From an uncultured Pseudomonadales bacterium (GTDB lineage: Bacteria > Patescibacteriota > Microgenomatia > UBA1400 > MFAQ01), in contig CAZDXN010000002.1 of assembly GCA_964509695.1 (NCBI GenBank), positions 6,621-70,620 on the forward strand: a DNA stretch of 64,000 nucleotides, written 5' to 3'. Below the pieces are notes generated by a model. The model was not told the origin of the DNA and made no database searches. It saw only the letters and a program-made list of their open reading frames with translations. Shown one piece after another: positions 43,846 to 61,697 of this stretch; position 1 is the stretch's first letter; each line of letters starts with the position of its first letter. A program made the position numbers and the translations under genes.

Positions 43846-44190
43846 ATGGAAAAGTTTATCCTACATCAAAAAACCTATGATTTTATTCTTTATCTGTACC
43901 CCATCATCAACCGTTTGCCTAAAAATCATCGTCTTATACTCGGAAGGAAGCTTGAAGAATTAGCACTCGATCTTCTCATGTCTCTCATGAAAGCCAATAA
44001 AGCGCGGGAAGAAAAGAGAAAGCGGTTACAACTTGAAACATCGGACACGCTGGATTATCTGCGTATCGTGCTTCGGCTGGCGAAAGACACCCGTCTTATT
44101 AGTGTCAAACAGTATGCACATAGTGCCGAAAAGCTCAACGAAATCGGGCGCATGCTTTCCAGTTGGATGGGGTCAATCCGCAGTGTATGA
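43846..44190 (+). CDS. avd: DGR accessory variability determinant (Avd; four-helix-bundle / 23S rRNA-IVS protein family)
   Basis: 114 aa. N-terminus HQKTYDFILYLYPIINRLPKNHRLILGRKLEELALDLL. Basic helical protein immediately 5' of the TR. Confidence 0.85.
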   Translation: MEKFILHQKTYDFILYLYPIINRLPKNHRLILGRKLEELALDLLMSLMKANKAREEKRKRLQLETSDTLDYLRIVLRLAKDTRLISVKQYAHSAEKLNEIGRMLSSWMGSIRSV

Positions 44191-44221
44191 TACAAGAGGG
44201 AAAGATCAGTCAAAACGCAAC

Positions 44222-44341
44222 ACGCCTTTCTCCGCGGCGGCAATTGAAATAACACGTCCAACGCTGGGGCGTTTACAGCGAATCTGAACAACACGCCGGG
44301 GAATACGAACAACAACATCGGGTTTCGTTGCGCCAGCGATC
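44222..44341 (+). repeat. DGR template repeat (TR)
   Basis: 120 nt colinear with 49370-49489. It has 32 adenines and 11 in-phase AAY codons. Confidence 0.93.
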
Positions 44342-44540
44342 TTGCTCACTTTGCCCGTACCCGCAAAGTACGCGCCAGAACGTGTGGTATGTATTTACGG
44401 ATACATATCCGGGGTTTTATGGATCACAGCGGTCTTTTCCTTTCCGATAGTGGGTTTGGGAAAACATCATGCCTGTATTTTTACTATTCTCGACAAGCGG
44501 ATGGTAAAGTAAATGGGTGATAACAAGATAGGGTACGAAA

Positions 44541-44577
44541 GACAAACCCTGCGACAAAAGCGGGGTTTGTCGTTTTT
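44541..44577 (+). terminator. terminator-like hairpin plus U-tract ending 1 nt before the RT start codon (TR-RT spacer)
   Basis: gacaaaccctgc-gacaaaa-gcggggtttgtc (12 bp with one G:U), then gttttt, then ATG at 44578. Confidence 0.5.
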
Positions 44578-45669
44578 ATGTATACACACCTCTATGACCT
44601 GGAAAATTTATTGTATGCGTATGCGCAGGCACAACAGGATAATCGCTATAAGCGAAAGATTTGTGCGTTCACTTTTTCACTTGAGGAAAATCTCTTTGAT
44701 TTGAGGTGGGAATTGAGCCGGGGCCTCTATGTGCCGCGTCCGTATACCTACTTCATGCTTCATGATCCAAAGACGCGCAGCATCGCCGCGCCGAATTTTC
44801 GTGATAGAGTTGTCCAACATGCATTGGTCAATGTCATTCAACCTCTTTTTGAACGTCAATTTATTTACGACTCCTATGCTTGCCGCACGAACAAAGGCAC
44901 ACATTTTGCCGCCAAGCGACTGAAGAAGTTTCTCATGGCGGCTCGGTCTTTCCATGGCAAAGATACCCCAATCTATGTGCTTCAGTGTGACATTCGCAAA
45001 TTCTTCCAGAGTGTTTCTTGGGATATTCTTCTTAAGATTATCGGCAAAACTATTTCCTGCCAGAAAACAGTGTCTCTGATTAAGACGATCGTTACTACCC
45101 ACCACAATGTTGTACCTGCCCAAACACCTCTTTGTTCGCAATTATCACTTTTTTCTTCCAGTGAAAACCCTGCGGAAACAAGTATTTCAGTTGCGCAGAG
45201 AACAGGTTTACCGATCGGCAATCTGACGAGCCAGCTCTTTGCGAATGTTTACCTCAATGCGTTGGATCACTTTATTAAAGACCGCCTGCGTATCCGCTGG
45301 TACGGACGATACATGGACGACTTCTTTGTGTTGCACCACGACCGAGCGTATCTAAAACAGCTTTGCGACACGATTAATACTTTTCTTCAGCAGAAACTCC
45401 ATCTTTGCCTGCATCCAAAGAAATTAACGATTAAAAATGTTTCTAGCGGCGTGCCGTTTGTCGGATACCGGATATTTTACGACCATGTGCTGGTTCGGGG
45501 AAATACGCTTCGACGCATTGAGCGTAGCTATCGCTCTAAAGTAAAACAGGCCAAGCACGGCCGGTTGACCAGTCAAAAACTCGCTCAAACCAAGGCTTCC
45601 ATTATCGGTCATTTCAAGCACGCAAACAGCTACGGTTTGACCAAAAAGTTATTTGAGAAAAATGAATAG
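44578..45669 (+). CDS. DGR reverse transcriptase
   Basis: RT motifs include RYMDDFFVL (YxDD) and LPIGNLTSQLFANVYL, the [LIV]GxxxSQ signature that replaces the QG motif in DGR RTs. No maturase/X or endonuclease domain. Confidence 0.9.
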   Translation: MYTHLYDLENLLYAYAQAQQDNRYKRKICAFTFSLEENLFDLRWELSRGLYVPRPYTYFMLHDPKTRSIAAPNFRDRVVQHALVNVIQPLFERQFIYDSYACRTNKGTHFAAKRLKKFLMAARSFHGKDTPIYVLQCDIRKFFQSVSWDILLKIIGKTISCQKTVSLIKTIVTTHHNVVPAQTPLCSQLSLFSSSENPAETSISVAQRTGLPIGNLTSQLFANVYLNALDHFIKDRLRIRWYGRYMDDFFVLHHDRAYLKQLCDTINTFLQQKLHLCLHPKKLTIKNVSSGVPFVGYRIFYDHVLVRGNTLRRIERSYRSKVKQAKHGRLTSQKLAQTKASIIGHFKHANSYGLTKKLFEKNE

Positions 45670-45743
45670 ACGGTCTCTCTTGCAATTCTCGCGAATTGTT
45701 GATATTATTAGACTAATAAGTAGACTGATTTTAGACTAATTAT

Positions 45744-46958
45744 ATGGCCGTCACAATATCAAAAAATCCGTTCCGAACGCCGTTTTTATCCCACTTTATT
45801 TTTACTCCTGATCTATTACCGTTCTCTGATGAGGAAATTGTAAAGCGCGATCAAGATCTTGCCGAATTTGAACAGATTTTTTTGAACCCGGATATAGAAA
45901 AAAACCTGATCAGTAAAAATGAACTTTTGGCCTCCTATGCGATTTCCAAAGCTGAACATTCGACACTTACCTTGGCGGAAGCACAAAACGTCTATACCGT
46001 AGTGCTTGCCGCACAGGAGTATGTCTTTATTCGGGAAAAGTTAAACGCCGGCAAACGGCTCACGCAAAAAGATCACGACAAGTTGGAGTTTTTTAATATT
46101 GCGAAAACGTTTCGAGAGTTTAATCAAGTTCCGTTTTCCCTCGATATGCTATCCCCACATTTTATCCAAAACCTCCATGCCTCCCTTACGCAAGGTATGG
46201 ACGTGTTTAAAACATATCTTAGTGAGTTCACGGTGTACAAATCCGGTAACTGGCGGGACAATGATCGCATACGTGTGGGCGAGTATGCTCCCGCGCCGCA
46301 TATACAAATTGCCAGTGGTGTGGATGAACTTATCGCCTGGGTGAAAACGCATCCATCCCCCGTAGGAATTGCTATCTTTCATACTGCATTCTACGCATTG
46401 CACCCGTTTCACAACGGTAACAAGCGGATTTGTCGTATCCTGGAGCATTTGTTATTTCGGAGCATTGGCCTGAATCGGAAAAACCTCTACAGTACCTCTT
46501 ACTATTACCACAAAGAAAAACTCAGATATTATAAATATCTTCTTTACAGCCTCGAGCGCAACAACCTCAACCACTTTGTCAACTTCATTCAGGAATCATT
46601 AATGTTATCCATGCTTTCGGTGATCAAAATGAGCCTGGAATCAAAACGTCACGAGTATCTTACCAAACATACAACAGGTGATTTGATCTTACGGAATATC
46701 TTAAAGCCTTTGGTGAAACGTGAGGAACTACAGTTTAAACACCTTCTCAAACCTGTCGGTCATAAAATGGCACGACAAACTTTTGTGTCCAACTTAAAGC
46801 GCGCAGGGCAAGAAAACATTATCGTCAAAAGAGAGTCCGGGCGTTCTACCTATTACCGCCTGGCATTGATAACCCAGGAGGAAAACGTCGTTGCCCAGTG
46901 GCTGACATTTATCAAAGAACGGTTATCCTTTGTTCCCGATGATTTTCTTCTCGCATAA
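45744..46958 (+). CDS. Fic/DOC-family protein with a non-canonical active-site motif
   Basis: HPFHNGNKRICR versus the canonical HPFx[D/E]GNGRxxR. Confidence 0.7.
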   Translation: MAVTISKNPFRTPFLSHFIFTPDLLPFSDEEIVKRDQDLAEFEQIFLNPDIEKNLISKNELLASYAISKAEHSTLTLAEAQNVYTVVLAAQEYVFIREKLNAGKRLTQKDHDKLEFFNIAKTFREFNQVPFSLDMLSPHFIQNLHASLTQGMDVFKTYLSEFTVYKSGNWRDNDRIRVGEYAPAPHIQIASGVDELIAWVKTHPSPVGIAIFHTAFYALHPFHNGNKRICRILEHLLFRSIGLNRKNLYSTSYYYHKEKLRYYKYLLYSLERNNLNHFVNFIQESLMLSMLSVIKMSLESKRHEYLTKHTTGDLILRNILKPLVKREELQFKHLLKPVGHKMARQTFVSNLKRAGQENIIVKRESGRSTYYRLALITQEENVVAQWLTFIKERLSFVPDDFLLA

Positions 46959-47055
46959 CCTGTCGGTAGATTAGTGGCTTGCACTTGCGCTTGCATACCC
47001 CAGACATAAATACTACTATGATAATGTACGGGATTGGACATCAATCCTGGTTTTT

Positions 47056-47403
47056 GTGTACCGTCGGACACATATGAAAAACGAAGCCAATATACCCACT
47101 AAAATCGCCATTTTTCAAGGCAAAAAAGTGCGCAAGATTATTTTCAATAATGAGTGGTGGTTTGTAATAGTCGATGTGGTTTCCGCTCTTACCGATTCCG
47201 CACAACCCGATGGTTATGTTAAAGATATGCGACGTCGAGATAATGAACTTTCCAAAGGGTGGGGGCAAATTGCCACCCCCCTTTCTGTAGAAACTGCTGG
47301 TGGAAAACAAAAACTGAATTGTGCCAATACAGAAGGATTATTCAGGGAATTCAATTTAAACCCGTCGAATTCGATGGATTTAGGAATGAGGTTTACACTA
47401 TGA
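47056..47403 (+). CDS. Bro-N / antirepressor-like DNA-binding domain protein, possibly 3'-truncated
   Basis: FQGKKVRKIIFNNEWWFVIVDVVSALT...ANTEGLFR. The sequence becomes unrelated at the point where homologues normally continue. Confidence 0.5.
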   Translation: MYRRTHMKNEANIPTKIAIFQGKKVRKIIFNNEWWFVIVDVVSALTDSAQPDGYVKDMRRRDNELSKGWGQIATPLSVETAGGKQKLNCANTEGLFREFNLNPSNSMDLGMRFTL

Positions 47404-47413
47404 AAAAACTACC

Positions 47414-48247
47414 ATGACCACTCAAAAAACACACAAAATTTCGGTAAAAGGGATAGAAATCGTAATCTTTGTTAATGAAGAGTCTGACTATATTTCTCTG
47501 ACTGATATCGCTAAATTTAAAGACAAAGAACGAACAGAATACGTGATCCAAAATTGGATGAGAAATCGTGATACTATCGAATTTTTGGGAATTTGGGAAC
47601 ATTTGAACAATCCAAGTTTTAAACACATCGAATTCGATGTGTTTAAAAATAATGCAGGATCAAATAGTTTTTCCCTTACACCAAAACGCTGGATAAAATC
47701 AGTTAATGCTATTGGGTTAATTAATAAATCTGGTCGATACGGTGGCGGTACCTTTGCTCACAAGGATATTGCATTTGAGTTCGCGTCCTGGATCTCAGCA
47801 GAATTCAAACTCTACATCATTAAAGAATTCCAACGCCTGAAAAATGAAGAACAAAAAAAGATTGAATCTGGTTGGGATGTCAAACGAATTCTCACCAAGA
47901 TCAACTACAAAATCCACACTGATGCCATTAAAGAACATTTGATCCCTAAAAACATCTCTAGCAATAGGGCTAACATTGTCTACGCTAACGAAGCAGATGT
48001 ATTAAATGTAGCCTTGTTTGGCAAAACTGCTAAAGAATGGCGAGACGAAAACACCAGTAAAGATGGGAATATCCGTGATTTTGCAGATGTCACTCAACTG
48101 GTCGTGCTGGCTAACCTGGAGGGGATGAACGCCGAGCTTATCCGCCAAGGCATGATGCAACCTGACCGACTGGTACAACTTAATCAGATTGCTATTGTCC
48201 AGATGCGGTCATTGCTTGATAATAGCAGTGTAAAGAAATTACTATGA
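47414..48247 (+). CDS. KilA-N domain protein
   Basis: YISLTDIAKFK...NWMRNRDTIEFLGIWEHLNNPSFK...GRYGGGTFAHKDIAFEFASWISAEFKLYIIKEFQRLK. Confidence 0.8.
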   Translation: MTTQKTHKISVKGIEIVIFVNEESDYISLTDIAKFKDKERTEYVIQNWMRNRDTIEFLGIWEHLNNPSFKHIEFDVFKNNAGSNSFSLTPKRWIKSVNAIGLINKSGRYGGGTFAHKDIAFEFASWISAEFKLYIIKEFQRLKNEEQKKIESGWDVKRILTKINYKIHTDAIKEHLIPKNISSNRANIVYANEADVLNVALFGKTAKEWRDENTSKDGNIRDFADVTQLVVLANLEGMNAELIRQGMMQPDRLVQLNQIAIVQMRSLLDNSSVKKLL

Positions 48248-49395
48248 CAAAAATTATTGAGCGATTGAAGCACTACCTCTTTACCCCCCGTTTCCACTTT
48301 TCGCGGTTTCAATTTAATCTGGTCGCCCTTCTTTTTATCACCGTCGGTTTCATTACCGGCACGTATCTCACGCTCAAGGGCATCACGAGCATCTTTGCGC
48401 TCAATGATACAAATAAAACCTGGACGTTTAATACCGCCAATGCCGGTAGCTACACGTATGATTCAACGCTGGTCACGGTGGATGATACAGGAGCGCATTC
48501 GGTGGCCAACAAACTCACCAATCCCGCCTTTGCGTCGGATAATTCCTCCTGGAGTACGGGAGCGGTGCCAGCCTCTGGCTGGGTGGAAGTGCCGGGCAAC
48601 AGCACGTACTCCACAACAAACTTTTTGGCCATGAAATATGAAGCCAAATGTGCGGCGACCTCTGACGCCACAACAGGCTTGACCAGTCCTGACTCGGGGT
48701 ATCACACGTACTCGGATAGCACCACCACCTGTACGTCAGGCAACAGCAAACAAGTCGTCTCGGTGGCCTCCGGCTACCCGATTGCCAACGTTTCACAAAC
48801 CAACGCCATCACCCGCTGTAGTACGGTATCCTTAAACGGCAACGCTGCGCACCTTATTACCAACGCCGAGTGGATGACGGTAGCTCGAAACGCCGAAGCC
48901 CAGGCGGGTAACTGGAGTTTGGGAAGTGTGGGAAGCGGGTATCTTTTCGCCGGACACAATGACAACGCCCCGGCCCTGGCGCTTGCTGCCTCAACCACCG
49001 ACACCGGCAACAATGCCTGCGCCTACACCGATACGGCAGGAACAACGGAAGCGCCAAGTAGCTGTCCCACCAATACCGGCAATAACACGTCCGGGACTGC
49101 CGGCAATCAAAAGCGCGTTTTAACGCTCTCAAACGGCGCATACATTTGGGATATCCCCGGCAACGTCTGGGAATGGACCAATGATACGATTCAAGGCAAA
49201 GACCAGCCGACCAATGCCTCTCCGGGCTTTGCCTGGCGGGAGTTTACCGCGCTGACCACCTACGGCACGCTCACCTACGACAAAGTCCGTCCTTTGGCGA
49301 GTACGTACGACGCCACGTACGGCGTAGGGCGCATGTATTCCGACGGAACTTCCTCTAATACCACCGTCTACGCCTTTCTCCGCGGCGGCGCTTGA
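48244..49395 (+). CDS. DGR target protein, N-terminal part as read with the standard code: TM anchor plus FGE-sulfatase/C-type-lectin-fold domain, ending at a TGA inside the VR
   Basis: TM FNLVALLFITVGFITGTYLTL. GNVWEWTND (FGE/CLec signature). Ends ...YAFLRGGA-TGA. Confidence 0.8.
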   Translation: MTKIIERLKHYLFTPRFHFSRFQFNLVALLFITVGFITGTYLTLKGITSIFALNDTNKTWTFNTANAGSYTYDSTLVTVDDTGAHSVANKLTNPAFASDNSSWSTGAVPASGWVEVPGNSTYSTTNFLAMKYEAKCAATSDATTGLTSPDSGYHTYSDSTTTCTSGNSKQVVSVASGYPIANVSQTNAITRCSTVSLNGNAAHLITNAEWMTVARNAEAQAGNWSLGSVGSGYLFAGHNDNAPALALAASTTDTGNNACAYTDTAGTTEAPSSCPTNTGNNTSGTAGNQKRVLTLSNGAYIWDIPGNVWEWTNDTIQGKDQPTNASPGFAWREFTALTTYGTLTYDKVRPLASTYDATYGVGRMYSDGTSSNTTVYAFLRGGA

Positions 49396-49489
49396 AATGA
49401 CGCGTCCGTCGCTGGGGCGTTTACAGCGAGTCTGGGCGGCACGCCGGGGGATACGGGCGGCTACATCGGGTTTCGTTGCGCCAGTGATC
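49370..49489 (+). repeat. DGR variable repeat (VR)
   Basis: Gap-free match to the TR at offset 5148. 17 substitutions at TR adenines and 1 at a C near the 3' end. Encodes ...GYIGFRCASD. Confidence 0.93.
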
Positions 49490-52400
49490 CCGTAGCCATC
49501 TCTCAATCTTTCTCCTCTTCTTCCGGCCGCGCCGGCGGCGGAAATACCGTTACTATAGGCTCTATTTCAGACGGGAAAATCTACCAAAGTGTGAACGTCG
49601 GCGATACCTCCACGTATGATTTCTCGGCCTATGTCTATGACGCCACCACCGGCAACGTCGGCGGGACGGTGACATCCTCTATCGCCCAGCTCTACTACAA
49701 CGGCGCAACCATCGCAACCACATACACCGATGCGGGTTCGGGCTGGTGGAAACTGACGGGGACGTTGACCGGCGCCAACGCCTCCCGCGAGTACGGCGTC
49801 TTGGTCAAAGCCGGGAAAACCGTGAAGGTTGATGATTTTACGTTATCCAAACAAGGTACCTACAGCGTCTATACAACAAGCGCCTATTCCAACGCGCAGG
49901 TCAATACTTGGGATACGTTTTGCGAAGGGACACTGGTTGGTTCCACCTGCACCACGGACTCGACCGCCACCGGTAACGCGGCAATCAAGTACCAGCTTTG
50001 TACCGATGACGGCTCCACCTGCCAATCCGGTTCGTCTTGGAAATACTGGACAGGGTCTGCGTGGGCTGCGGCGACTGACACCACAACGACAGTCAACAGT
50101 GCTGCCCAACTGACACAATCTGCGATGCAGGCGCTCCCGATTACCTCCCAAAAAATTTCGGTGAAAGCGATCTTGACGTTTGGCGGGAGTGATACGCCAC
50201 TCCTCCCCCACGTTTCGATAGGACTGACCACGGATACCACGGCTCCAACGACCAATGCTTCAGCAATCGCCATGACCCGCTCAAGCGGCGGAACGAGTAT
50301 GTCCAGTAACGACTGGAGCAAAGGCTCATCACCATACTTTTCCTGGACGGCTGGGGCGGATAACGCGGGCGGATCTGGACTCAAGGGGTACTGTTTATAC
50401 TTGGGAACTGATTCTGCGGGAGCACCATCGACAAGTAAGGGACTTTTGGGCACTTCGCCCGTTTCCACAACCGGTACTACCTGCCAGTTTATCGTCTCGG
50501 CAACCAGCGTCGATCTGGCTACCAGCGGCTACATCGGGACGGCACTCACCACCTCCAGTTCACCGTACTATTTTAATATCAAAGCTGTGGATAACTCTGG
50601 AAATATTTTTTCCGGCACGAGTGTCCAGTTTCAATTCCGGTTTGACAACACCGTGCCGACAAATACATCCTACATCTCCTGTGCGTCCGGCTCGTTTTCC
50701 AACGTGGCGGATATGAATTTTAGCTGGCCTATTTCCGGAAGCGCTGCCTCTTCCGATGCCAATGCCGGACTTTTAGGCTGGCAGTACCAGATCAACTCGA
50801 CGTCGGGAACGTGGCTCGGGACAACCACGGAGGCACTCCTTGGAGTGACCAACTATATTCCCTCTTCGGCCACGTCCCGCACCCTGTCGCAATCCCAGGA
50901 TGGCAGCTCCATCGTCACCGGAACCAACGTGGTGTATTTCCGCACGGTGGACGCGGCGGGCAACCCATCGGCCGACTCTACCATCCGCACCTGTAACCTC
51001 TCGTATGGCGGAGCTGCTCCGTCATTTGGCGGGACGGATACCGTGACGGTGACACCCACCACGTCGACCGCAAACTCATACGCGCTTTCCTGGCCGGCAG
51101 CTACCGCCACATCCGGTCAAACGGTAGCCCATTACTACTACATGGTCAATACTTCGCCTCCAAGCACGCTTGCCACCCTTCAGGGAAACGCGTCCACCTA
51201 TATCGACAACGGAACCACAAGGACTGTCTCTGCTGCGGCTCTTCCGAGCGTGAACAAGGGAAGCAATACGGTGTATGTGGTGGCGATTGATAATGCAAGT
51301 ACGCCCAATTACTCGCCCAGTAACGTCATTTCCGGCACGTTTACCTTGAGTTCAACCGATCCGGACAACGTTGGGAGTCTGGTGGCTTCCGACAGCAGTA
51401 TCAAATCGTCATCCCAGTGGAACGTCACGCTGACCTGGGTTGCACCCACATATCAAGGAGCAGGAAACCTAACGTATCTGGTCAAACGGTCAACAGATAA
51501 CAGCACCTTTACGCAAGTCGGAACCTCAACAGGTTTGTCCTATGTGGACAACGCTCCCTCATCAGCGCTGTACTACTACAAAGTGTATACCAAGGACGGC
51601 GCCAGTGCTCAAAGTTCGGGAACAAACGCCGTATCGATAACGCCGACCGGAAAATGGACGAGCGCACCGAGCCTTTCCACCGGTCCGGATGCCGGCAGTC
51701 TCACGACCAAAAAAGCGACGATCACCTGGACAACGTCCCGGTCTGCCGATTCAAAAATCCAGTACGGAACAACCTCGGGAAGCTACGGATCGGTCGAGCC
51801 GAGTAATTCATCGCAAGTCTCTTCCCATTCGATTCAGTTGACCGGTCTCAATCCGGGCACCACCTATTATTACAAAGCCAAATGGACTGACGAAGACGGC
51901 AACACGGGTACATCTGGTGAGAAAAGTTTTTCGACAACCTCGGCCCCAACCGTGAAAGACGTTTTGGCCAAAAGCATCGGACTGACGACGACCACGATTC
52001 AATACACCAGTCTCAACGCCAGCAAGGTGAAGATTTATTACGGCACCACCACATCCTTTGGCGGATCAAAAGAGGTGTCCACCTCGACCTCGGAAACAAC
52101 CTATACCACAGAACTCACGGGGTTATCTGACGGCACGAAGTATTACTACAAGATCAATACTTTTGATTCTGATAGCACGGAGTACGAAGGAACAACGCTC
52201 GACTTTACCACCCTGCCCCGGCCAAAAATTACCAATGTCCGTATTCAGCAAGTCGCCAACACCGCGCAGTCCACCATTCTCATTACCTGGACCACCAACA
52301 CCGACGTGTCTTCCATCGTCACCTACTACCCCGAAGGCCAGACCGGGTACGCCAGGGATGAAGTCAACGTGGCGCTCACCCGCGGTGACCACCGGATGAT

Positions 52401-52905
52401 TGTGCGGGGTCTTCTGCCGCAAACGGATTACCTGCTCGTAGTGAAGGGTCGGGATAAGATTGGCAACGAAGCGGTGAGCGACTCCCAACGGCTGACCACC
52501 GCTACCGATACCCGACCGCCACAGATTTCAGACCTGCATGTGGAGGGAAGTAACATTCCGGCAGTCACTCAGACTGCCCAAGAACAAACCGCCCAGCTCA
52601 TCGTGTCCTGGAATACCGACGAGCCTGGTAGCTCTCAAGTAGAGTTTGGCGAAGGGACGGGAACGACGTATGCCCAAAAAACCCAGGAGGACAGCAATCT
52701 GACGTTCAATCACATCGTCATTATCTCCAATCTTACGCCATCAAAAGTGTATCATGTGCGATCCGTCTCCAAAGACAAGGCTGGAAATATCGGCAACTCC
52801 ATTGACACGGTCACGATTACCCCCAAAGCGACGGAAAATGCGCTTAACCTTGTCATCACGAATTTACAGGGGGCCTTTGGCTTTTTAGGAGGCTTGAAAA
52901 AATAA
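49396..52905 (+). CDS. in-frame continuation of the DGR target: rest of VR, jelly-roll/CBM-like region, Ser/Thr-rich region, four Fn3/PAP-N-like repeats. The ORF track starts it at GTG 49591.
   Basis: Same frame as 48244-49395 with no stop in 49396-49590. Four repeats of the type ITWTT..S...V.YG......H...L.GL.P.T.Y.Y......D..GN span about 51700-52840. Confidence 0.75.
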   Translation, partial: NDASVAGAFTASLGGTPGDTGGYIGFRCASDPVAISQSFSSSSGRAGGGNTVTIGSISDGKIYQSVNVGDTSTYDFSAYVYDATTGNVGGTVTSSIAQLYYNGATIATTYTDAGSGWWKLTGTLTGANASREYGVLVKAGKTVKVDDFTLSKQGTYSVYTTSAYSNAQVNTWDTFCEGTLVGSTCTTDSTATGNAAIKYQLCTDDGSTCQSGSSWKYWTGSAWAAATDTTTTVNSAAQLTQSAMQALPITSQKISVKAILTFGGSDTPLLPHVSIGLTTDTTAPTTNASAIAMTRSSGGTSMSSNDWSKGSSPYFSWTAGADNAGGSGLKGYCLYLGTDSAGAPSTSKGLLGTSPVSTTGTTCQFIVSATSVDLATSGYIGTALTTSSSPYYFNIKAVDNSGNIFSGTSVQFQFRFDNTVPTNTSYISCASGSFSNVADMNFSWPISGSAASSDANAGLLGWQYQINSTSGTWLGTTTEALLGVTNYIPSSATSRTLSQSQDGSSIVTGTNVVYFRTVDAAGNPSADSTIRTCNLSYGGAAPSFGGTDTVTVTPTTSTANSYALSWPAATATSGQTVAHYYYMVNTSPPSTLATLQGNASTYIDNGTTRTVSAAALPSVNKGSNTVYVVAIDNASTPNYSPSNVISGTFTLSSTDPDNVGSLVASDSSIKSSSQWNVTLTWVAPTYQGAGNLTYLVKRSTDNSTFTQVGTSTGLSYVDNAPSSALYYYKVYTKDGASAQSSGTNAVSITPTGKWTSAPSLSTGPDAGSLTTKKATITWTTSRSADSKIQYGTTSGSYGSVEPSNSSQVSSHSIQLTGLNPGTTYYYKAKWTDEDGNTGTSGEKSFSTTSAPTVKDVLAKSIGLTTTTIQYTSLNASKVKIYYGTTTSFGGSKEVSTSTSETTYTTELTGLSDGTKYYYKINTFDSDSTEYEGTTLDFTTLPRPKITNVRIQQVANTAQSTILITWTTNTDVSSIVTYYPEGQTGYARDEVNVALTRGDHRMIVRGLLPQTDYLLVVKGRDKIGNEAVSDSQRLTTATDTRPPQISDLHVEGSNIPAVTQTAQEQTAQLIVSWNTDEPGSSQVEFGEGTGTTYAQKTQEDSNLTFNHIVIISNLTPSKVYHVRSVSKDKAGNIGNSIDTVTITPKATENALNLVITNLQGAFGFLGGLKK

Positions 52906-52909: not shown

Positions 52910-53671
52910 ATGACCAACGCCACGATTCATATTGCTCATGTTTCCAAATCATTCCACGTCGGAGTGCAGGATGTGCCGGTACTGAGAGATATCTCCTTTG
53001 AGGTATATCCCAATGATTTCTGCGTCATTTTTGGCCCATCGGGGTGCGGCAAATCCACGCTCCTGCATACGATTTTGGGGCTGGAAGCGCCAAGTGCGGG
53101 AACCTGCACGTTTCTTTCTCAAAATTTGTATGAGGGCATGGATGAGGACGAGCGGAGCGATTTTCGCAAAAACCACGTGGGCATGGTTTATCAACAGCCC
53201 AACTGGATTAAGTCGCTCACTGTTTTAGAAAATGTGGCCTTTCCATTGATACTGATGGGGAAACCAAAGGGTGAAAGTTTGGAAAAGGCAAACGCCATGC
53301 TCGAGGTCATGGGGATGCGTGACTGGTCGGGGTACGCTCCGACGGAACTCTCGAGCGGTCAGCAACAAAAAGTGGCTCTGGTTCGGGCGCTTGTGACCAA
53401 TCCCGAAGTCATTATTGCCGACGAACCAACCGGAAACCTGGATTTTGAATCGGGTCAGGAACTCATGCAGTTGCTCGTCACTCTCAACAAGGAACAGGCA
53501 AAAACGGTTCTCATGGTCACCCATGACTTGGAATACTTAAAATTCGCCAAAACGGTGGTCAAGATGTTTGACGGCGCCATCGCCGGAGAATACGCGGAAA
53601 AAGACAAAGAAACGTTACTGAAAGAGATTAAAGGGAAACGAGGGAACGGAAATATAATATGCCAACGCTGA
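52910..53671 (+). CDS. ABC transporter ATP-binding protein (MacB/LolD/FtsE-like)
   Basis: Walker A GPSGCGKST, signature LSSGQQQ, Walker B IIADEPTGNLD. Confidence 0.9.
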   Translation: MTNATIHIAHVSKSFHVGVQDVPVLRDISFEVYPNDFCVIFGPSGCGKSTLLHTILGLEAPSAGTCTFLSQNLYEGMDEDERSDFRKNHVGMVYQQPNWIKSLTVLENVAFPLILMGKPKGESLEKANAMLEVMGMRDWSGYAPTELSSGQQQKVALVRALVTNPEVIIADEPTGNLDFESGQELMQLLVTLNKEQAKTVLMVTHDLEYLKFAKTVVKMFDGAIAGEYAEKDKETLLKEIKGKRGNGNIICQR

Positions 53672-55698
53672 AAGAAAAAACCACCATATCTTTCATCAAC
53701 CTTAAAACCGACTTCTGGAAGCTGGCGACATTTGTGCTGCTTCTCATCGTGTATCTTCTGGCCAAGATGGCAACGTCTCTCGTCTTCATGTTGGAAACAA
53801 AAACCCACGGACTCGGACAAAAACTCACCAAAAACTCATTCTTTGCAAAAGTCTTGCTCAAATCAAAGAACGCGTATGACCGCATCACCGTTATTTTGGA
53901 TCATCAACAACCCGGATCCATTTCCAGAATCGAACTCATCGAACTTTCGTTGCGGAACATGAAATCAAAAAAAACACGGACGTATATCACCATCGGCGGC
54001 ATGACGATTGGTATTGGCACGATTGTTTTTCTCGTTTCCCTGGGCTATGGGGTGGAACAGCTCGTCGTGACCCGCGTGGCCAGACTCGAGGAGATGAAAC
54101 AAGCGGACGTTTCTCCTCAAGCCGGAGGAAAAGTAAAGATTACCGATAAGACGCTCTCCAATTTTAAAGAAATTCCATCCGTAGATATGGCGCTTCCCTT
54201 GATCGCGGTCGTGGGACGGGTCAGTTATTTAAACTCGGTCACGGACATGGCGGTGTATGGCGTCACGACCGATTATCTTAAGCAATCCGCCATTAAACCG
54301 GTGGACGGAAAAGTGTTTGAGAGTAACGACCTTTCTTTTGACGTGTCTCACCTCAAAGGGCAGGTAGCCGGCGTGTCAACGGACAGAAAAACCGGGACGA
54401 TAGGTGAAAAAATCCAGGACGTCGATTTTACCATTGATCCGGGAACGTGGATTCGCGTCCGCGAGAATCCGTCAACGACTGGCAAAATTATTGGGTATAC
54501 CAAACGCGTGGAAGGGTCTCCGCAAGGAGAAGAAATCTGGGGAGGGAAATATGAATCAGATACCGGCGTGGGGACATTTGGAGAAACGGAAGACGGAAAA
54601 ACGATCGGGAAATGGATACAATCTGACGTGCTGCTCTGGAAAAGCGAAAAATGCGATCCGGCCACTCAAGGTGACTGCGAGGGTGGAAAGTATTTGGTGG
54701 CCCGAGGTGAGGACAACAAGCAAATTCAAAAAACAGGATATATTGCCGAAATAGGGATCAAACTCTCCGGTGTCAACTTGAGTGAGCCGAAAGTTTTGGG
54801 AGTAACTACGGACGCGTCGGGTAGCGCACAGGTAAATTGGGTCGAGATTGCGTCGGAAGCGGGCATTATGAAACCGCCGGATACAAAAACCGTTGATCTT
54901 TCCACGTCTGCCAAACGCGAGGCGGTGGTGAATCGGGCCATGCTCTCGGTGTTGGGCATTAAAGAGGCTGAAGCCCTTGGTAAAAAGTTTATGACCTCGT
55001 TTGTGGTGGTTGGCGATCTGTTAAGCGACTCCACGGCAAATATCGAATCGTCTCAAGCGGAATACACGATTGTCGGCGTGATCCCCGAAGAAAAAACACC
55101 ATTTTTTTACGTGCCATTTCTTGATCTCCGGAGTTTAGGCATTGCGAATTATTCCCAAGCCAAAGTGGTGGTGAAAGATCAAAATGAACTTGTCAAAACC
55201 AGACGGCAAATTGAGTCCATGGGGTATATGACCCGCTCGGTAGCTGATACCGTAGCGCAAATCAATTCGTTGTTTGCAACGGCAAGAACCGTGCTCATGT
55301 TGCTGGGAATGGTGGCGCTTTCCGTTGCGGCACTGGGGATGTTTAACACGCTCACCGTTTCTCTCCTGGAGCGTACACGGGAAGTTGGCCTGATGAAAGC
55401 GATGGGCATGAAATCATCAGAGGTGCAGGAATTGTTTTTGACAGAATCGATGATTATGGGATTTTTCGGCGGAATTTTGGGAATCATGCTTGGCGGGGTC
55501 TTAGGAATACTCGTCAGCATCATGCTATCGTTCTTTGCCGTTATCAAGGGTGTGGGGTTTGTGAACATTTCCTATATCCCTCTCCCGTTTATTCTCGTGA
55601 TTATCTTCTTATCTCTATTGGTGGGATTGGTGACCGGTATTTATCCGGCACGAAGAGCGACAAAAATATCAGCATTAAATGCGTTGCGATACGAATAA
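53659..55698 (+). CDS. MacB-like ABC permease (large extracytoplasmic domain plus C-terminal FtsX domain)
   Basis: 679 aa. TM1, then an extracytoplasmic region of about 430 aa, then three C-terminal TMs with REVGLMKAMGM. Overlaps the ATPase gene by 13 nt. Confidence 0.8.
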   Translation: MPTLKEKTTISFINLKTDFWKLATFVLLLIVYLLAKMATSLVFMLETKTHGLGQKLTKNSFFAKVLLKSKNAYDRITVILDHQQPGSISRIELIELSLRNMKSKKTRTYITIGGMTIGIGTIVFLVSLGYGVEQLVVTRVARLEEMKQADVSPQAGGKVKITDKTLSNFKEIPSVDMALPLIAVVGRVSYLNSVTDMAVYGVTTDYLKQSAIKPVDGKVFESNDLSFDVSHLKGQVAGVSTDRKTGTIGEKIQDVDFTIDPGTWIRVRENPSTTGKIIGYTKRVEGSPQGEEIWGGKYESDTGVGTFGETEDGKTIGKWIQSDVLLWKSEKCDPATQGDCEGGKYLVARGEDNKQIQKTGYIAEIGIKLSGVNLSEPKVLGVTTDASGSAQVNWVEIASEAGIMKPPDTKTVDLSTSAKREAVVNRAMLSVLGIKEAEALGKKFMTSFVVVGDLLSDSTANIESSQAEYTIVGVIPEEKTPFFYVPFLDLRSLGIANYSQAKVVVKDQNELVKTRRQIESMGYMTRSVADTVAQINSLFATARTVLMLLGMVALSVAALGMFNTLTVSLLERTREVGLMKAMGMKSSEVQELFLTESMIMGFFGGILGIMLGGVLGILVSIMLSFFAVIKGVGFVNISYIPLPFILVIIFLSLLVGLVTGIYPARRATKISALNALRYE

Positions 55699-55780
55699 TC
55701 TGGTTCTCAACAAACGAATTTGCATTCCTTGATCTTGTCTGATATACTAACGATCAGTTCTTTGGGAAACTCAAGAACTC

Positions 55781-55807
55781 TGCCACCATCATAGGGTGGC
55801 ATTTTTG
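55781..55807 (+). terminator. rho-independent terminator after the ABC operon
   Basis: tgccacc-atcatag-ggtggca followed by tttttgt. Confidence 0.65.
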
Positions 55808-55833
55808 TACATGACCATTCAAGGAGGTGAATT

Positions 55834-56166
55834 ATGAAAAAGATTATTGTCCTAAACGCACTCATTATCATTTCACTGCTTCTGGCAGTTCCCGTGTATG
55901 CGGCATCAGCCGATGTGACCAAGATTGAAACATTTATCAAAAGCGCCATTCAGGTGTTAGTCACGCTTGCCGGTCTTATTTCCGCCGGGTTCTTTGTCTG
56001 GGGCGGGGTCGGATACATGACGAGTTCCGGCAACCCGGAAATGCTTGATCGTTCCAAAAAAACCATTTGGTATTCAGCGATTGGTTTAGCGGTTGTACTT
56101 GGAGCATTTGTTCTCACAAACATTGTCTCTGATTTAGCAACCGGAGCATTCGGGGTAACGCCGTAA
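55834..56166 (+). CDS. VirB2/TrbC-like conjugative pilin
   Basis: Signal peptide ...VPVYAASA, then two hydrophobic helices around GYMTSSGNPEMLDRSKKTI. Strong SD aaggagg 7 nt upstream. Confidence 0.65.
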   Translation: MKKIIVLNALIIISLLLAVPVYAASADVTKIETFIKSAIQVLVTLAGLISAGFFVWGGVGYMTSSGNPEMLDRSKKTIWYSAIGLAVVLGAFVLTNIVSDLATGAFGVTP

Positions 56167-56195
56167 CCCCCTCAATCTTTGGCCTATGAATCACT

Positions 56196-57488
56196 ATGAA
56201 ACGAATCGTATTGGCACTCAGCACCATACTGATACTCCTTCTTGCACCCTCAGTGGCATATGCCGCAACGAATGCACCCTCGGAGGTAACGGCGTTTACG
56301 AGTGACGCCCTTTCCATCATTACGATGATTTCGGGCGCAGCAGCGGTCTTTTTTTTAATTCGCGGCGGATACGTCTACATCACCTCAACGGGTCGGCCTG
56401 ATGCACTTGAAGATGCAAAGAAAACGATCCGCAACGCTTTACTCGGACTCGTACTCGTCATTGCAGCCAACGGGATTGTGTCCCTACTCCAAGGGGCGCT
56501 AGTAGGCAATGGGGACGCTGGCACGATAACGAATCTCCCATTAACCCAAATTGAAAGCGTCCCGCCAAACGAGGGATTAACCCAAGTTCTTATCGATGCC
56601 GTCAATGGCTTTATCCAAAACATCGTTGAAAGCTCAACCAAGCCTATTGTAGATGGCATCATGAGCTTTCTATCAACCACGCCGACACTTTTAACCAATG
56701 CAACTATCGTCAAGTTCTGGCTGATTATCCTAGGAATTACCGACACCTTGTTTGTCCTGGTGATAGCGCTTCTGGGACTGCAGTTTATGAGTGCTTCTAC
56801 CTTTGGTTTTGAAGAAATTGAGTTTAAACATCTCCTGCCCAGGATTGGACTTGCTTTTCTGGCTGCGAATGTTTCACTGTTTCTTGCCGACTATGCCATC
56901 CAAGCCAGTAACGCCTTGGTATCTGGGGTTCTCTCGGCCACCGGCGGTCTGAGCCAAGCCTGGATAAGTAATGCAATAACTGTATCAAATCTCACCAACG
57001 GTACGGCGCCGTTTATTATCCTGATTTTTCTGCTTATTTTTCTGATTATTTCCATTGTTTTACTCCTTATGTATATCAGCCGGTTGATTGTCATTTCACT
57101 CGGGGCAGTGCTTTCACCCTTGGTATTTCTGTTATGGGCAATGCCCAAAACTTCTGACTTTGCGGAAATGGCCATCAGGGGCTATTTTGTGTCCGTGTTT
57201 ACGATTTTTGTACATGTGGTCACCATTCAACTGGCTGCAGCTTTTCTTACCTTACCAGAACAGACCGGTAATTCGCTCATTTCCATTGCGGTGGCAATAG
57301 GCCTTCTGTTAACGCTTCTGAAAATCCCCACCTTTTTGATGCAACTGATTCTTTTTTCGTCCCGCGTCGGATCGGTAAAGCAAATGGGCAACCACATTAT
57401 CAATGTCATGAGCGCAGACAGCGCCGGTAACACCGTCAGCCACGGAATGAAATCAGTTAAAACCCCCAGAAAGTCGGTTGACCTATGA
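56196..57488 (+). CDS. fusion of a VirB2-like pilin module to a VirB6/TrbL-like polytopic channel protein
   Basis: The N-terminal roughly 100 aa are paralogous to the 55834 product (YITSTGRPDALEDAKKTI vs YMTSSGNPEMLDRSKKTI). At least 6 further TM helices follow. Confidence 0.6.
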   Translation: MKRIVLALSTILILLLAPSVAYAATNAPSEVTAFTSDALSIITMISGAAAVFFLIRGGYVYITSTGRPDALEDAKKTIRNALLGLVLVIAANGIVSLLQGALVGNGDAGTITNLPLTQIESVPPNEGLTQVLIDAVNGFIQNIVESSTKPIVDGIMSFLSTTPTLLTNATIVKFWLIILGITDTLFVLVIALLGLQFMSASTFGFEEIEFKHLLPRIGLAFLAANVSLFLADYAIQASNALVSGVLSATGGLSQAWISNAITVSNLTNGTAPFIILIFLLIFLIISIVLLLMYISRLIVISLGAVLSPLVFLLWAMPKTSDFAEMAIRGYFVSVFTIFVHVVTIQLAAAFLTLPEQTGNSLISIAVAIGLLLTLLKIPTFLMQLILFSSRVGSVKQMGNHIINVMSADSAGNTVSHGMKSVKTPRKSVDL

Positions 57489-57967
57489 GAACCACAATTA
57501 TTCCGGCACAAATTACCACGGTCGAGGACAAAATTGCTGGATCGCTCAACATGACGCAAATTTTGATCATGATCGTGCCGATTTTGTGGACGGCCCTAGT
57601 CTATGCCGTATTTTATCCAAGCACCAAGATTGTTCCGTATAAATTTGTACTGGTATTTGTTGTCACTGCAATTTGTTTTATTTTGGTGCTAAGAATCAAA
57701 GACAAAATTATCGCCGAATGGCTGGGGGTACTGACCAAGTACCGGATGCGCCCAAAATATTATTTGTTTAATAAAAACACGTTAGTAAACCGTACTCTGG
57801 ACATGCCCGACATTCCATTTGAAATTAATCTTGCCAAAAAACATACAGTTAAGCCTGTTCCGGCTAAAACTAACGAGATCAAGCTGTCAGATCTGGTAAG
57901 ACTTGCGCATCTGGTTGATTCCGGGAGAATCGCTTTGCGATATCAATTTAAAAAGAGACTGGTATGA
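57485..57967 (+). CDS. PrgI / VirB3-like small membrane protein
   Basis: IPAQITTVEDKIAGSLNMTQILIMIVPILWTALVYAVFY and a second TM. Located just upstream of the VirB4-like gene. Confidence 0.55.
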   Translation: MRTTIIPAQITTVEDKIAGSLNMTQILIMIVPILWTALVYAVFYPSTKIVPYKFVLVFVVTAICFILVLRIKDKIIAEWLGVLTKYRMRPKYYLFNKNTLVNRTLDMPDIPFEINLAKKHTVKPVPAKTNEIKLSDLVRLAHLVDSGRIALRYQFKKRLV

Positions 57968-58584
57968 AAAATATATTTAAAAGATTATCCAAAGTAAGCA
58001 GCCGCCAACAAATTCAGATCAAAGAAGTGGTGGATAATATCCTGGTACTTCCAGGTAACGAATACCGGCAAATTCTGGAAACCTCGTCGGTGAACTTTGA
58101 GCTCAAAAGCGAAGACGAACAGGACGTAATGATTGATAGCTTCCAAAACTTTCTCAATGCGCTCCCTTGTCAAATTCAAATCTTAGTCCGGGTAAGAGAA
58201 ATCGATATTGATAAATACGTTGAGGATATTTCTAAAACTAAGGAAAAAGAAACCGTTACGGCGTATAAAAGACAGATTGACGGCTACTGCGCCTTTGTTA
58301 AAAAGTTAGTCTCCGGTAACAAGATTCTTTCCCGGCGCTTTTACATTGTTGTGCCATACAAACATACTGACCGCCACCAAGATTGGAAACTGATTAAAGA
58401 ACATTTAGCCCTAGAAAAAGACATCATTATCAAAGGCTTGGAACGGATGCAAATGAAGGCCAGATCGTTATCAGGACTGGAAATTCTTAACCTTTTTTAC
58501 ACCTTCTACAACAGCGAAAGCATGAAAACCCAAGCGCTGACCAAAGAAACCGTAGAAGCATTTCTGAAAAACAACTATGTTTAA
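57964..58584 (+). CDS. T4SS-associated hypothetical protein, translationally coupled to the VirB4-like gene (8-nt overlap)
   Basis: 206 aa, no NTPase motif. Call rests on gene order only. Confidence 0.4.
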   Translation: MKNIFKRLSKVSSRQQIQIKEVVDNILVLPGNEYRQILETSSVNFELKSEDEQDVMIDSFQNFLNALPCQIQILVRVREIDIDKYVEDISKTKEKETVTAYKRQIDGYCAFVKKLVSGNKILSRRFYIVVPYKHTDRHQDWKLIKEHLALEKDIIIKGLERMQMKARSLSGLEILNLFYTFYNSESMKTQALTKETVEAFLKNNYV

Positions 58585-60376
58585 CATCAAGAAAAAAATT
58601 AACAATCTAAAACCAGTTAAATCCTGGAAAAGACGGCAAAAGAAAAAGGCGCTCAGAAACCAAGCTGTCAAAATTGCCTTTGGCGAGCAAGACCAGTTGG
58701 ATCTCATCTCGTATGCCGGACTTAAAGAAGAATCAAGCTATTTGCAGATTAACGACCGTTATGTGCGAACCCTGTTTGTATCCGGTTATCCATACATTGC
58801 CTCAACCGGCTGGCTGTCGATGCTCATTAACTTTAACCACGATATTGATATCAGCTACCACATTGAACAGGTTGATCCCATGATTGCGCTTCCTAAACTC
58901 AATAGAAAAATTACTGAGCTCGAATCCACTAAACGTACCATGCTTAAAGAAGGACGGGTCATTGGCAGCGAAATTACCGATCCTCTTGAATCGGCCATGG
59001 AACTCAAAGACAAAATCCAGCGGGGTATGGAAAAGCTCTTTCAAATCTCTATCTACATGACGATTACCGCTGAAAATCTCAACGAATTAAACAAAACCAC
59101 CAAACTGTTGGAAACGGTGATGCAAACCAGGCTATTTTATATAAAACCAGCCACTTTCCAACAAATAGAAGCCTTGCAATCAATTCTCCCCAGATCAGAA
59201 AATAAATTAGCCCAGAAGCGAAACTTGGACAGTTCCAGCACTGCCTTAACTTTCCCATTTGTCTCTTCGGAGCTCGTCCAAGAATCCGGTATTCTGTACG
59301 GCATTAACAAATCAAATAATTCACTGGTTATTGTAGATCGCTATAGTTTAAATAACGCCAACTCGATTATTTTTGCTCAATCTGGATCCGGTAAAAGTTA
59401 TACCGCCAAGGTCGAGATATTGCGACACCTCATGCAAGGCACGAAAGTGATCATTATTGATCCTGAACGCGAGTATAAACAGTTGGCAGCCAGTGTGAAC
59501 GGCACATATATTAAACTTTCCAGCACTTCCAAAGAAAAAATAAATCCCTTCGCGTATTCAAGGCGAGCAGTCACCGACGAAAATAACCTATCCGAGCAAA
59601 TTCAGGATCTCACCGAGCTAATATCTCTCATGGTAGGCTCGCTCACTTCAGAAGAAAGGGGTGCGGTGGATAAAGCCTTACTTCAAACATACAAAAACTT
59701 GGGTCTGACTCCGAGAAAAAATGCTAAAACACCGGAACAACTTGCGTATCCTCTCCTCAAGGACTTTTATAAAACTTTGAAGGCCATGAAGCAGAAAGAC
59801 CTCTGCAACCGGCTCGAACGATTTGTAAAGGGATCGCTCTCTACCGTTTTTGACTCACAAACGAACATTAAGCTGGATAACCGGCTGATTGTTTTTGATA
59901 TTAAGGATTTGAATGAGTCACTGCGGTCAATCATGATGATGGTTGTTGCAAATTTCGTTAATAACGAAGTTAAGCAAAATCCCCAAAAGCGAATGCTCGT
60001 TATTGATGAAGGATGGATGCTTCTTCAAGAACCGGAAAGCGCCAGATTTATCTCGGGTCTAGTCAGACGGGCCAGAAAATATTATTTGGGAGTAACGATC
60101 ATTACTCAGCAAGCTAATGACTTTTTAAATCAAGAATATGGTAAAGCCATCGCTAGCCAATCATCATTAAGAATTCTGATGCGCCAGGACACGACCACAA
60201 TCAAAAAAGTAGCCGATGAGTTCCATCTTTCCGGCTACGAACAACATTACTTACTAACGTGTGATCGGGGTGAGGCGCTTCTGATTGCTGATCAAAATCA
60301 TGTCGCGGTAAAGGTGGTAGCTTCGGATGAAGAACACCCACTTCTGACAACTGATCCCCGGGAAGTGTATATCTAG
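58577..60376 (+). CDS. VirB4/TraE/TrsE-like conjugation ATPase
   Basis: N domain RYVRTLFVSGYPYIASTGWL, Walker A FAQSGSGKSY, Walker B MLVIDEGW, and ITQQANDF. Confidence 0.88.
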   Translation: MFNIKKKINNLKPVKSWKRRQKKKALRNQAVKIAFGEQDQLDLISYAGLKEESSYLQINDRYVRTLFVSGYPYIASTGWLSMLINFNHDIDISYHIEQVDPMIALPKLNRKITELESTKRTMLKEGRVIGSEITDPLESAMELKDKIQRGMEKLFQISIYMTITAENLNELNKTTKLLETVMQTRLFYIKPATFQQIEALQSILPRSENKLAQKRNLDSSSTALTFPFVSSELVQESGILYGINKSNNSLVIVDRYSLNNANSIIFAQSGSGKSYTAKVEILRHLMQGTKVIIIDPEREYKQLAASVNGTYIKLSSTSKEKINPFAYSRRAVTDENNLSEQIQDLTELISLMVGSLTSEERGAVDKALLQTYKNLGLTPRKNAKTPEQLAYPLLKDFYKTLKAMKQKDLCNRLERFVKGSLSTVFDSQTNIKLDNRLIVFDIKDLNESLRSIMMMVVANFVNNEVKQNPQKRMLVIDEGWMLLQEPESARFISGLVRRARKYYLGVTIITQQANDFLNQEYGKAIASQSSLRILMRQDTTTIKKVADEFHLSGYEQHYLLTCDRGEALLIADQNHVAVKVVASDEEHPLLTTDPREVYI

Positions 60377-60378
60377 CC

Positions 60379-60984: not shown

Positions 60985-61031
60985 AGAATTGTGGTGTCAA
61001 TTTATATATTTAATCCGTCAAGTAAAAACAG

Positions 61032-61061: not shown

Positions 61062-61069
61062 GATAATCT

Positions 61070-61696: not shown

Positions 61697-61697
61697 T

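Follow-up and report, generated by a model that had tools for sequence, protein, structure and literature searches.

The 64,000-nucleotide (nt) stretch of contig CAZDXN010000002.1 analyzed here, referred to as the window, carries a complete diversity-generating retroelement (DGR). It is composed of the accessory gene avd, a template repeat (TR), a structured spacer, and a reverse transcriptase (RT) gene, with its variable repeat (VR) 5.1 kb downstream inside a 1,553-codon target gene. Both repeats contain an in-frame stop codon. All positions are coordinates of the window, and the window sequence is an assembly consensus. The same arrangement had been proposed in an earlier note made from the letters alone (the sequence-only reading), and it is borne out by the Avd, by an RT similar to Bordetella bRT, and by a target fold similar to TaqVP and Mtd. 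The features of the element are the following.

43846..44190, plus strand: avd, DGR accessory four-helix-bundle protein, 114 amino acids (aa) (Pfam bAvd, 83.6 bits)
44222..44341, plus strand: TR of 120 nt, 32 of them adenines; read in the target frame, it has 11 AAY codons
44245..44247, plus strand: TGA in the TR, target frame, at the Trp codon of RGGxW
44342..44577, plus strand: structured TR-RT spacer, 236 nt, candidate 'Sp' region of the DGR RNA
44578..45669, plus strand: DGR RT, 363 aa (RVT_1; motifs LPIGNLTSQ and YMDD)
48244..52905, plus strand: target gene, one 1,553-codon frame with the TGA at 49393-49395 as its sole interruption
49370..49489, plus strand: VR, codons 376-415 of the target
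49393..49395, plus strand: TGA in the VR (truncated, OFF allele); TGG (Trp, ON) in the sister assembly
49464..49489, plus strand: 3' VR block of 26 nt, resembling an initiation of mutagenic homing (IMH) element, with zero TR-adenine changes in both assemblies; holds the C44337/T49485 difference

The Avd scores 96.3 bits with the NCBIfam model DivGenRetAVD, above its 80-bit equivalog cut-off, and the RT open reading frame (ORF) contains the LPIGNLTSQ and YMDD motifs, so that both of these calls of the sequence-only reading hold. The best solved relative of the RT is Bordetella bRT (8ub7, E 3.6e-46), while group II intron RTs and chains deposited as retron-type RTs follow at E 8e-18 or weaker. 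Against NCBIfam, the group II maturase model TIGR04416 ranks first by score with 130 bits versus a cut-off of 300, the retron St85 model gives 49.8 bits versus 235, and the RT stays far under every cut-off for the group II, retron, and defense-associated RT (DRT) families. A grouping with group II or retron RTs, which had been named as the outcome that would speak against a DGR, is therefore not what these searches return.

The spacer between the TR and the RT gene is conserved and has a predicted fold. An alignment of 26 relatives gives 45 predicted pairs, 37 of them with compensatory changes, and the minimum free energy of the spacer (z = -3.68) beats all 200 shuffles. By analogy, we infer that it is the putative counterpart of the 'Sp' region of the Bordetella phage BPP-1 DGR. 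Directly 5' of the RT ATG, a 12-bp GC-rich hairpin followed by a U run (44541-44576) shows compensatory changes across the clade of relatives. It resembles an intrinsic terminator that would separate the TR RNA from the RT gene, and it could either set where the DGR RNA ends on its 3' side or act as an attenuator of the RT gene. No Rfam family matches positions 43000-50500 at E ≤ 1, and the whole window yields two tRNAs only.

The TR and the VR align without gaps over 120 nt at an offset of 5148, identity collapses beyond both ends, and a search of the window finds no third copy. Tabulated by TR base, 17 of the 18 mismatches fall at TR adenines (14 A>G, 2 A>T, 1 A>C), with 15 of the 32 TR adenines unchanged; placing 17 of 18 mismatches on 32 adenines out of 120 positions has a hypergeometric p of 4.6e-11. 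Ten of the 11 AAY codons are altered in the VR. All of these counts reproduce those of the sequence-only reading. The VR of the sister assembly, described below, differs from the TR at 22 positions, 20 of which are TR adenines, and the TR itself is identical across four independent assemblies (the window, L001, L002, and L003).

The sole non-adenine difference between the TR and the VR is C44337/T49485. A C/T difference near the 3' end is common to several relatives, and by sequence it is consistent with an IMH/IMH*-type mark. The sequence-only reading had placed the IMH/IMH* distinction here, but the VR is not followed by a hairpin. The A>G bias that had been pointed out is real. Over both VRs of this element, adenines are kept in 27 of 64 cases and changed to G in 31, to C in 3, and to T in 3, compared with 55% kept, 23% G, 12% T, and 10% C in the clade. 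The A>G share of adenine changes is thus larger here (31/37) than in the rest of the clade (140/289; Fisher p = 4e-5), and the excess could be a property of the RT or the result of selection for Gly, Asp, Ser, and Ala. A separate observation concerns the VR codon at 49378-49380. At this codon the window reads CTC and the sister assembly CGC, yet the base that changes corresponds to a T, not an A, in the TR codon (44230-44232). The pair TR-CTC/VR-CGC is also present in L013, L106, L103, and L121, and L017 has CAC. The CGC is either a native Arg codon kept when the 5' cDNA junction falls 3' of it, or a site-specific non-adenine error.

An identical RT protein is encoded on JACPEU010000006.1 (GCA_016183355.1, Candidatus Collierbacteria), which is referred to as the sister contig (L001) and has its VR at 14095-14214. 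Between positions 35493 and 63671 of the window (28.2 kb), the two sequences differ at 17 positions, all of which lie at 49379-49463 inside the VR, and 16 of these are TR-adenine positions; the TRs are identical. Since the differences are confined to the VR and the TR is fixed, the DGR is active in this lineage. A clonal VR, identical in related genomes, had been put forward as the case against the element, and the sister contig shows the opposite. One of the differences, A49395>G, converts the TGA of the window into TGG and gives an intact 1,553-aa gene (MBI2325855.1). The stop has been written or erased by the DGR, and the target is OFF in the window and ON in the sister assembly. A Logan contig of SRR12113420, recovered by look-up of the ABC protein, begins at 49464, the first base past the last variable position, which is the expected behavior of a de Bruijn assembler at a polymorphic stretch. 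Exact look-up of the 383-aa product that precedes the TGA found no further VR allele, and exact look-up of the neighboring KilA-N protein returned the sister contig as its sole match.

The target has an N-terminal hydrophobic anchor, a domain resembling C-type lectins and the formylglycine-generating enzyme (FGE) in which the VR is located, and ~1,138 residues of Fn3/Ig-like repeats; Pfam reports fn3 and Pur_ac_phosph_N matches. The TGA of the window divides it into the 383-aa product and the part that follows. With the VR included, as in the intact protein of the sister assembly, Pfam FGE-sulfatase reaches 28.5 bits and passes its 23.3-bit cut-off. An AlphaFold2 model of the homologue P0002, which is 77% identical to the window protein, has a predicted local distance difference test (pLDDT) score of 71 with a core above 85, and its best Foldseek matches are TaqVP and Mtd, followed by FGE and EgtB. 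According to this model, the N-terminal domain of the target has a C-type-lectin/FGE-like fold of which the VR is the C-terminal part. The VR lies in the N-terminal quarter of the target, and the same is true in all relatives with a complete target, where it occupies approximately codons 360-420 of frames of ~1,513-1,565 codons. Judging from the uninterrupted frames of this length in relatives, full length is the conserved functional state of the target. An independent gene is not supported for the 1,104-aa ORF downstream of the TGA, as this ORF shares the frame of the upstream part, relatives join the two without a break, and a separate start context is lacking.

Stop codons carried by the template

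The Trp of RGGxW, whose codon is replaced by TGA in the TR and VR of the window, is near-invariant across 32 aligned homologues, and its aligned counterpart in human SUMF2 (PDB 1y4j) is the W of 'RGASW'. The codon is TGG in every other TR of the clade. The sequence-only reading had printed an asterisk at this place in both translations; the asterisk is a real TGA, and what had been left uninterpreted is that the TR templates it and that it interrupts a conserved gene of 1,553 codons. TGA terminates 18 of the 59 long ORFs of the window, including those of Avd, KilA-N, and an ABC ATPase, often in ATGA overlaps, and the ORFs tile the window under table 11. No suppressor tRNA is found by the tRNA scan of the window, which gives Val(GAC) and Leu(TAG) only. 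Given this use of TGA as a terminator and the lack of a suppressor tRNA in the window, the TGA of the VR is a genuine stop, and a genome-wide TGA recoding or a suppressor tRNA is rejected on the same grounds. Selenocysteine is unlikely because the conserved residue is Trp, the relatives use TAA or TAG, and no SECIS-like (selenocysteine insertion sequence) hairpin follows the codon. Using the adenine spectra of the element and of the clade, the expected OFF fraction per rewrite is 0.42-0.55 for a template TGA and about 0.57 for a template TAA.

RT-based scans recovered ~65 TRs of the same family in genomes of the candidate phyla radiation (CPR) and in metagenomes, with Shapiro-, Pace-, Davies-, and Roizmanbacteria among the CPR hosts. 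Several of these TRs carry a TAA at the Leu codon of AF-L-RGG, namely L133, L007/L174, L087, the L167 group (14 contigs from several samples), L122, and L020. The TAA-bearing TRs are spread over no fewer than three or four separate positions of the RT tree, with pairwise RT identities of 51-74%. The VR codons linked to the TR TAA are TAG, TGA, TGA, and TAG (OFF) and TTA (ON), and the truncated products called in these relatives end in '...YAF' or '...YGF'. In L087, the TR-templated stop is the sole interruption in 1,597 codons. Together, five of the seven sampled alleles linked to a stop-bearing TR are OFF, which is about the expectation from mutagenesis alone. An internal TR stop is present in 4 of the 16 ungapped pairs of the clade and in none of 66 TRs outside it (Fisher p = 0.001), the reading frame of this background survey having been fixed after inspection of all three frames. 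The same inspection exposed the apparent TR stops outside the clade in L076 and L156/L154 as wrong-frame calls. In the sister group of the L020/L122 lineage, the TRs L119 775-894 and L136 972-1091 have AAA at the AF-L-RGG Leu codon; AAA is one step from TAA, and all three stops are possible from it under adenine mutagenesis.

The part of the target that would be lost in the OFF state is under purifying selection. Over the 1,137 codons 3' of the VR, compared in frame, the ratio of nonsynonymous to synonymous substitution rates (dN/dS) is 0.05 between the window and L007, 0.05 between L007 and L087, and 0.08 between the window and L087. Synonymous divergence (dS) is above 1.3 in all three pairs, and the sampled VRs of these lineages are all OFF. 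For L122 and L020, which are sisters on the RT tree and share the TAA, dN/dS is about 0.08 and synonymous sites are saturated. Such low ratios among stop-bearing lineages make the TR stop compatible with long-term upkeep of the full-length protein. In the stop-bearing lineages with a complete target (the window, L007, L087, L020, and the L167 group), the frame 3' of the VR is open apart from lesions within the VR.

Switching, load and other explanations

Based on these observations, we consider it probable that the locus is an active, island-borne DGR of Candidatus Collierbacteria, a CPR lineage, and that it would both diversify its target and turn it on and off in a stochastic, reversible way. 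By analogy with known DGRs, an avd-TR-spacer RNA would be reverse-transcribed by an RT-Avd complex with misincorporation opposite template adenines, and the cDNA would replace the VR (codons 376-415) in the lectin domain of a membrane-anchored surface protein. A rewrite that keeps the A of the stop codon would give TGA and the loss of the end of the lectin domain together with 1,138 downstream residues (OFF), an A>G rewrite would give TGG and hence Trp (ON), and A>C or A>T would give TGY and hence Cys. The relatives would reach the OFF and ON states through the TAA at the AF-L-RGG Leu codon. As the TR is the master copy, any lesion of the VR, whether a stop or an indel, would be overwritable by the next event. 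A further proposal is that the nonsense codons of the TRs have been selected in the clade as a retroelement-based phase-variation device, kept or re-evolved in several lineages. An adenine-bearing stop near the 5' end of a VR located far upstream in the gene would let one retrohoming event re-randomize the ligand-binding site and decide anew whether the adhesin is produced. We put this proposal forward tentatively, as a possibility with somewhat less than an even chance.

A number of observations weigh against the switching interpretation. The nearest RT relatives, L172 (87%) and L177 (79%), have TGG and CTC at the two codons of the TR and intact targets, so the TGA of the window is a recent G>A change in the TR, possibly one that is transient and has a slightly deleterious effect. 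In two OFF lineages the VR has indels (-2 nt in L007/L174, +1 nt in the L167 group), and these frameshifts look like decay. In the L167 group, one and the same OFF 5' half of the VR recurs in several samples. Low-level readthrough of UGA by tRNA-Trp may take place. The TGA (OFF) and TGG (ON) alleles are known from one assembly each, and the window is a consensus. Finally, no canonical GC-rich hairpin is present within ~100 nt 3' of the VR, where there are only weak or short inverted repeats.

The indel-bearing VRs are those of L007 (8324-8441), L174 (5001-5118), and L167-L171, and they differ between samples in their 3' part only. Between L171 and L167, the only differences are at adenine sites toward the 3' end of the VR, and L174 differs from L007 at one adenine site. 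This 3'-only variation suggests partial-length rewriting with a 5' junction downstream of the indel.

The strongest competing explanation is that the TR stop is neutral or slightly deleterious and made leaky by adenine mutagenesis, with the OFF alleles representing load or early decay. We regard it as a serious contender, not far below an even chance. The absence of a TR stop from the nearest relatives places the stop of the window on a terminal branch, the TR stops are scattered over the RT tree, some OFF VRs contain frameshifts, and the 5/7 OFF alleles are near the 0.42-0.57 expected without selection for ON. In one survey, over half of the candidate DGRs were discarded, with premature stops among the listed reasons (PMC5758913), and these discards agree with a reading in which the stops have no function. 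On the other hand, the same TAA codon is present in at least four deep lineages, L122 and L020 share it across saturated synonymous divergence while the target is conserved, and the ~1,137-codon downstream frame is otherwise open wherever a stop-bearing lineage has a complete target. TR stops are also missing from the 66 TRs outside the clade, and a single back-mutation (TGA>TGG or TAA>TTA) would lift the load.

An assembly artefact, in which a chimeric VR consensus or misplaced TR reads created a TGA that no real VR molecule carries, is improbable. VRs are heterogeneous in populations, as the break of the Logan assembly at the VR illustrates, and four TR adenines around the stop are unmutated in the window VR (49395-49397 and 49399). 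However, VR-specific mutated codons lie within 10 nt of the TGA on both sides (GCT upstream and GAC downstream), so any k-mer that backs the TGA is derived from the VR and not from the TR. In addition, independent assemblies of other lineages contain the same kind of TR-templated VR stop.

Decoding of the TGA, either through a TGA=Trp/Gly code or through efficient local readthrough that always gives the full-length protein, appears even less likely. The TGA is placed exactly where Trp is required, and tRNA-Trp misreads UGA, the stop most prone to leak. Against this, TGA ends 18 of the 59 long ORFs as expected of a stop, the window is without a suppressor tRNA, the TAA and TAG of the relatives are unreadable as Trp, and the TGA becomes TGG in the sister alongside other adenine-site changes.

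A locus other than a DGR, with a retron-type or group II intron RT beside a fortuitous repeat, as the public annotation of the RT ('group II intron reverse transcriptase domain-containing protein') and the top NCBIfam score of the maturase model might imply, can be dismissed with near certainty, as that score is 130 bits against a cut-off of 300, bRT is ahead by 28 orders of magnitude in E-value, the Avd passes its equivalog cut-off, the mismatches concentrate at adenines (p=5e-11), the strain differences are confined to the VR, and Rfam detects no group II intron RNA.

The cargo slot and the conjugative island

The genes around the DGR, identified by Pfam matches, are the following; the coupling protein is that of a type IV secretion system (T4SS).

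37141-38916, minus strand: large serine recombinase, 591 aa (Resolvase, Recombinase, and Zn ribbon)
39560-42151: T4SS coupling protein
42254-43060: Replic_Relax relaxase
43317-43631, minus strand: DUF2958
45744..46958, plus strand: Fic-domain protein (Fic, 52.9 bits)
47056..47403, plus strand: Bro-N domain protein (Bro-N, 25.5 bits versus a cut-off of 25.6, marginal)
47414..48247, plus strand: KilA-N domain protein (KilA-N, 72.3 bits), whose TGA overlaps the target ATG (ATGA)
52910..63612, plus strand: downstream island genes (Pfam hits on the identical sister contig)

The gene order of the clade is T4SS coupling protein, relaxase, DUF2958, avd, TR, RT, a slot filled by Bro-N, by KilA-N, or by nothing, target, ABC, and FtsX. 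Bro-N homologues fill the slot in many relatives and KilA-N does so in L007, L010, and L014, while Fic is absent from the slot in every relative checked. The 5.1-kb spacing between the TR and the VR is due to Fic, Bro-N, and KilA-N together filling this slot. The sequence-only reading had identified the three interposed genes correctly, as Pfam and NCBIfam agree, and had described the layout as unusually dispersed; it is better described as a variable cargo slot within an otherwise conserved order. The Fic motif, HPFHNGNKR, has Asn where HPFx[D/E]GN[G/K]R usually has Asp or Glu.

The serine recombinase abuts and partly overlaps tRNA-Leu (37182-37264), and its gene is uncalled on the sister contig. 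Near 38000 the GC skew changes from strongly positive to slightly negative. The recombinase, the tRNA-Leu, and the skew switch probably define the left end of a DGR-bearing conjugative island. Farther left, positions 35287-35492 match positions 1-217 of the sister contig with 4 single-nucleotide polymorphisms in 179 nt plus a ~30-nt diverged patch and an 11-nt offset. The divergence boundary at 35493 is the 3' flank of tRNA-Val, a pattern suggestive of either a recent acquisition in common or recombination that ended at the tRNA.

Downstream of the target, the island encodes an ABC ATPase, a MacB/FtsX permease, T4SS pilins, a TraC-like protein, a VirB4-like ATPase, and M23 and S24 peptidases; ABC and FtsX follow the target in all relatives. 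Between 61698 and 63612, genes for ThsB-TIR, ThsA-Macro, and a second ThsB-TIR (Thoeris-like defense) are followed by NUDIX, and this group adjoins the S24 LexA-like peptidase. Judging from its gene content, with a recombinase at a tRNA, a relaxase, a coupling protein, and T4SS genes, the DGR appears to be carried by an island of the integrative conjugative type. Scans of viral contigs with the TGA-type and the TAA-type TR gave zero matches and therefore no sign of a phage origin. From the island context, we infer that the target may be a surface adhesin of a conjugative or episymbiotic apparatus.

Comparison with known systems

The element is of a known kind, a DGR, with two conserved departures, namely an internal VR in a giant gene and template-encoded toggling stops. 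Published analyses describe TR codon choice, and even RT bias, as avoiding nonsense outcomes. The TGA of this TR and the TAA of its relatives breach the stated design rule that adenine mutagenesis of a TR should yield no stops. This rule is a rule of thumb and not a defining criterion; its breach marks a variant, and the membership in the DGRs stands. The locus is thus a natural counter-example to the view that DGR templates are tuned against truncation. Should the stop be under selection, DGRs can carry out phase variation in addition to diversification; should it simply be tolerated, the locus illustrates how template mutations escape selection under adenine mutagenesis. In either case, premature-stop filters in DGR surveys probably drop functional elements. 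Our literature search, whose coverage is incomplete, turned up no description of either a stop encoded naturally by a TR or ON/OFF switching by a DGR.

Roux et al. (2021, PMC8144416) describe a C-terminal VR as near-universal and explain it by a requirement for cis elements in the intergenic region. In contrast, ~1,140 codons follow the VR throughout this clade, and the argument on cis elements needs revisiting. The DGR also has a fixed place as one module of a conjugative-type island of CPR episymbionts, and its target is thereby a concrete candidate adhesin for the recognition of hosts or mates.

The DGR of Bordetella phage BPP-1 (avd-TR-brt, with mtd as the target) shares with the present element the order of Avd, TR, and RT, the adenine-specific changes, the protected 3' end of the VR, an RT that is the nearest solved relative (8ub7), and a VR in a C-type-lectin fold matching Mtd. 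It differs in that its target lies upstream of the RT and not downstream, its VR is at the C-terminus and not at codons 376-415 of 1,553, and a hairpin follows the VR. The in-frame TR stop and the location on a cellular island similar to integrative and conjugative elements (ICEs), and not on a phage, further set the present element apart. The closest structural match of the modeled target domain is TaqVP of Thermus aquaticus (PDB 5vf4; Foldseek E 4.5e-07, probability 1.00). Sequence identity is only ~15%, and TaqVP, which stands alone at ~380 residues, has its VR at the C-terminus and lacks an Fn3 tail.

Among cellular DGRs, those of CPR/Patescibacteria and DPANN, reportedly described by Paul et al. 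in Nat Microbiol in 2017, resemble the present one in the CPR host, in the membrane-anchored target with a C-type-lectin VR, and in being cellular chromosomal elements. Legionella pneumophila is said to carry an ICE-borne DGR with the target LdtA (reportedly Arambula et al., PNAS, 2013). Both that element and the present one are ICE cargo that diversifies a surface-displayed protein. LdtA differs in being a small lipoprotein with a C-terminal VR, while the DGR described here sits at a conserved site between relaxase and T4SS modules. We know of no TR-encoded stop reported for the LdtA DGR.

The closest parallels to the proposed switching are contingency loci. These operate through slippage of simple sequence repeats or, in the R64 shufflon, through swapping of the PilV adhesin tips on a conjugative plasmid. 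By analogy, the present locus would share with them a high-frequency, stochastic, and reversible change of state or variant in a mobile-element gene for a surface protein or adhesin, and in both cases OFF alleles are common despite long-term purifying selection. Unlike contingency loci, the switch proposed here would work through retrohoming of a mutagenized cDNA and not through slippage or site-specific inversion, and by this route the ON/OFF state would be coupled to re-randomization of the binding site.

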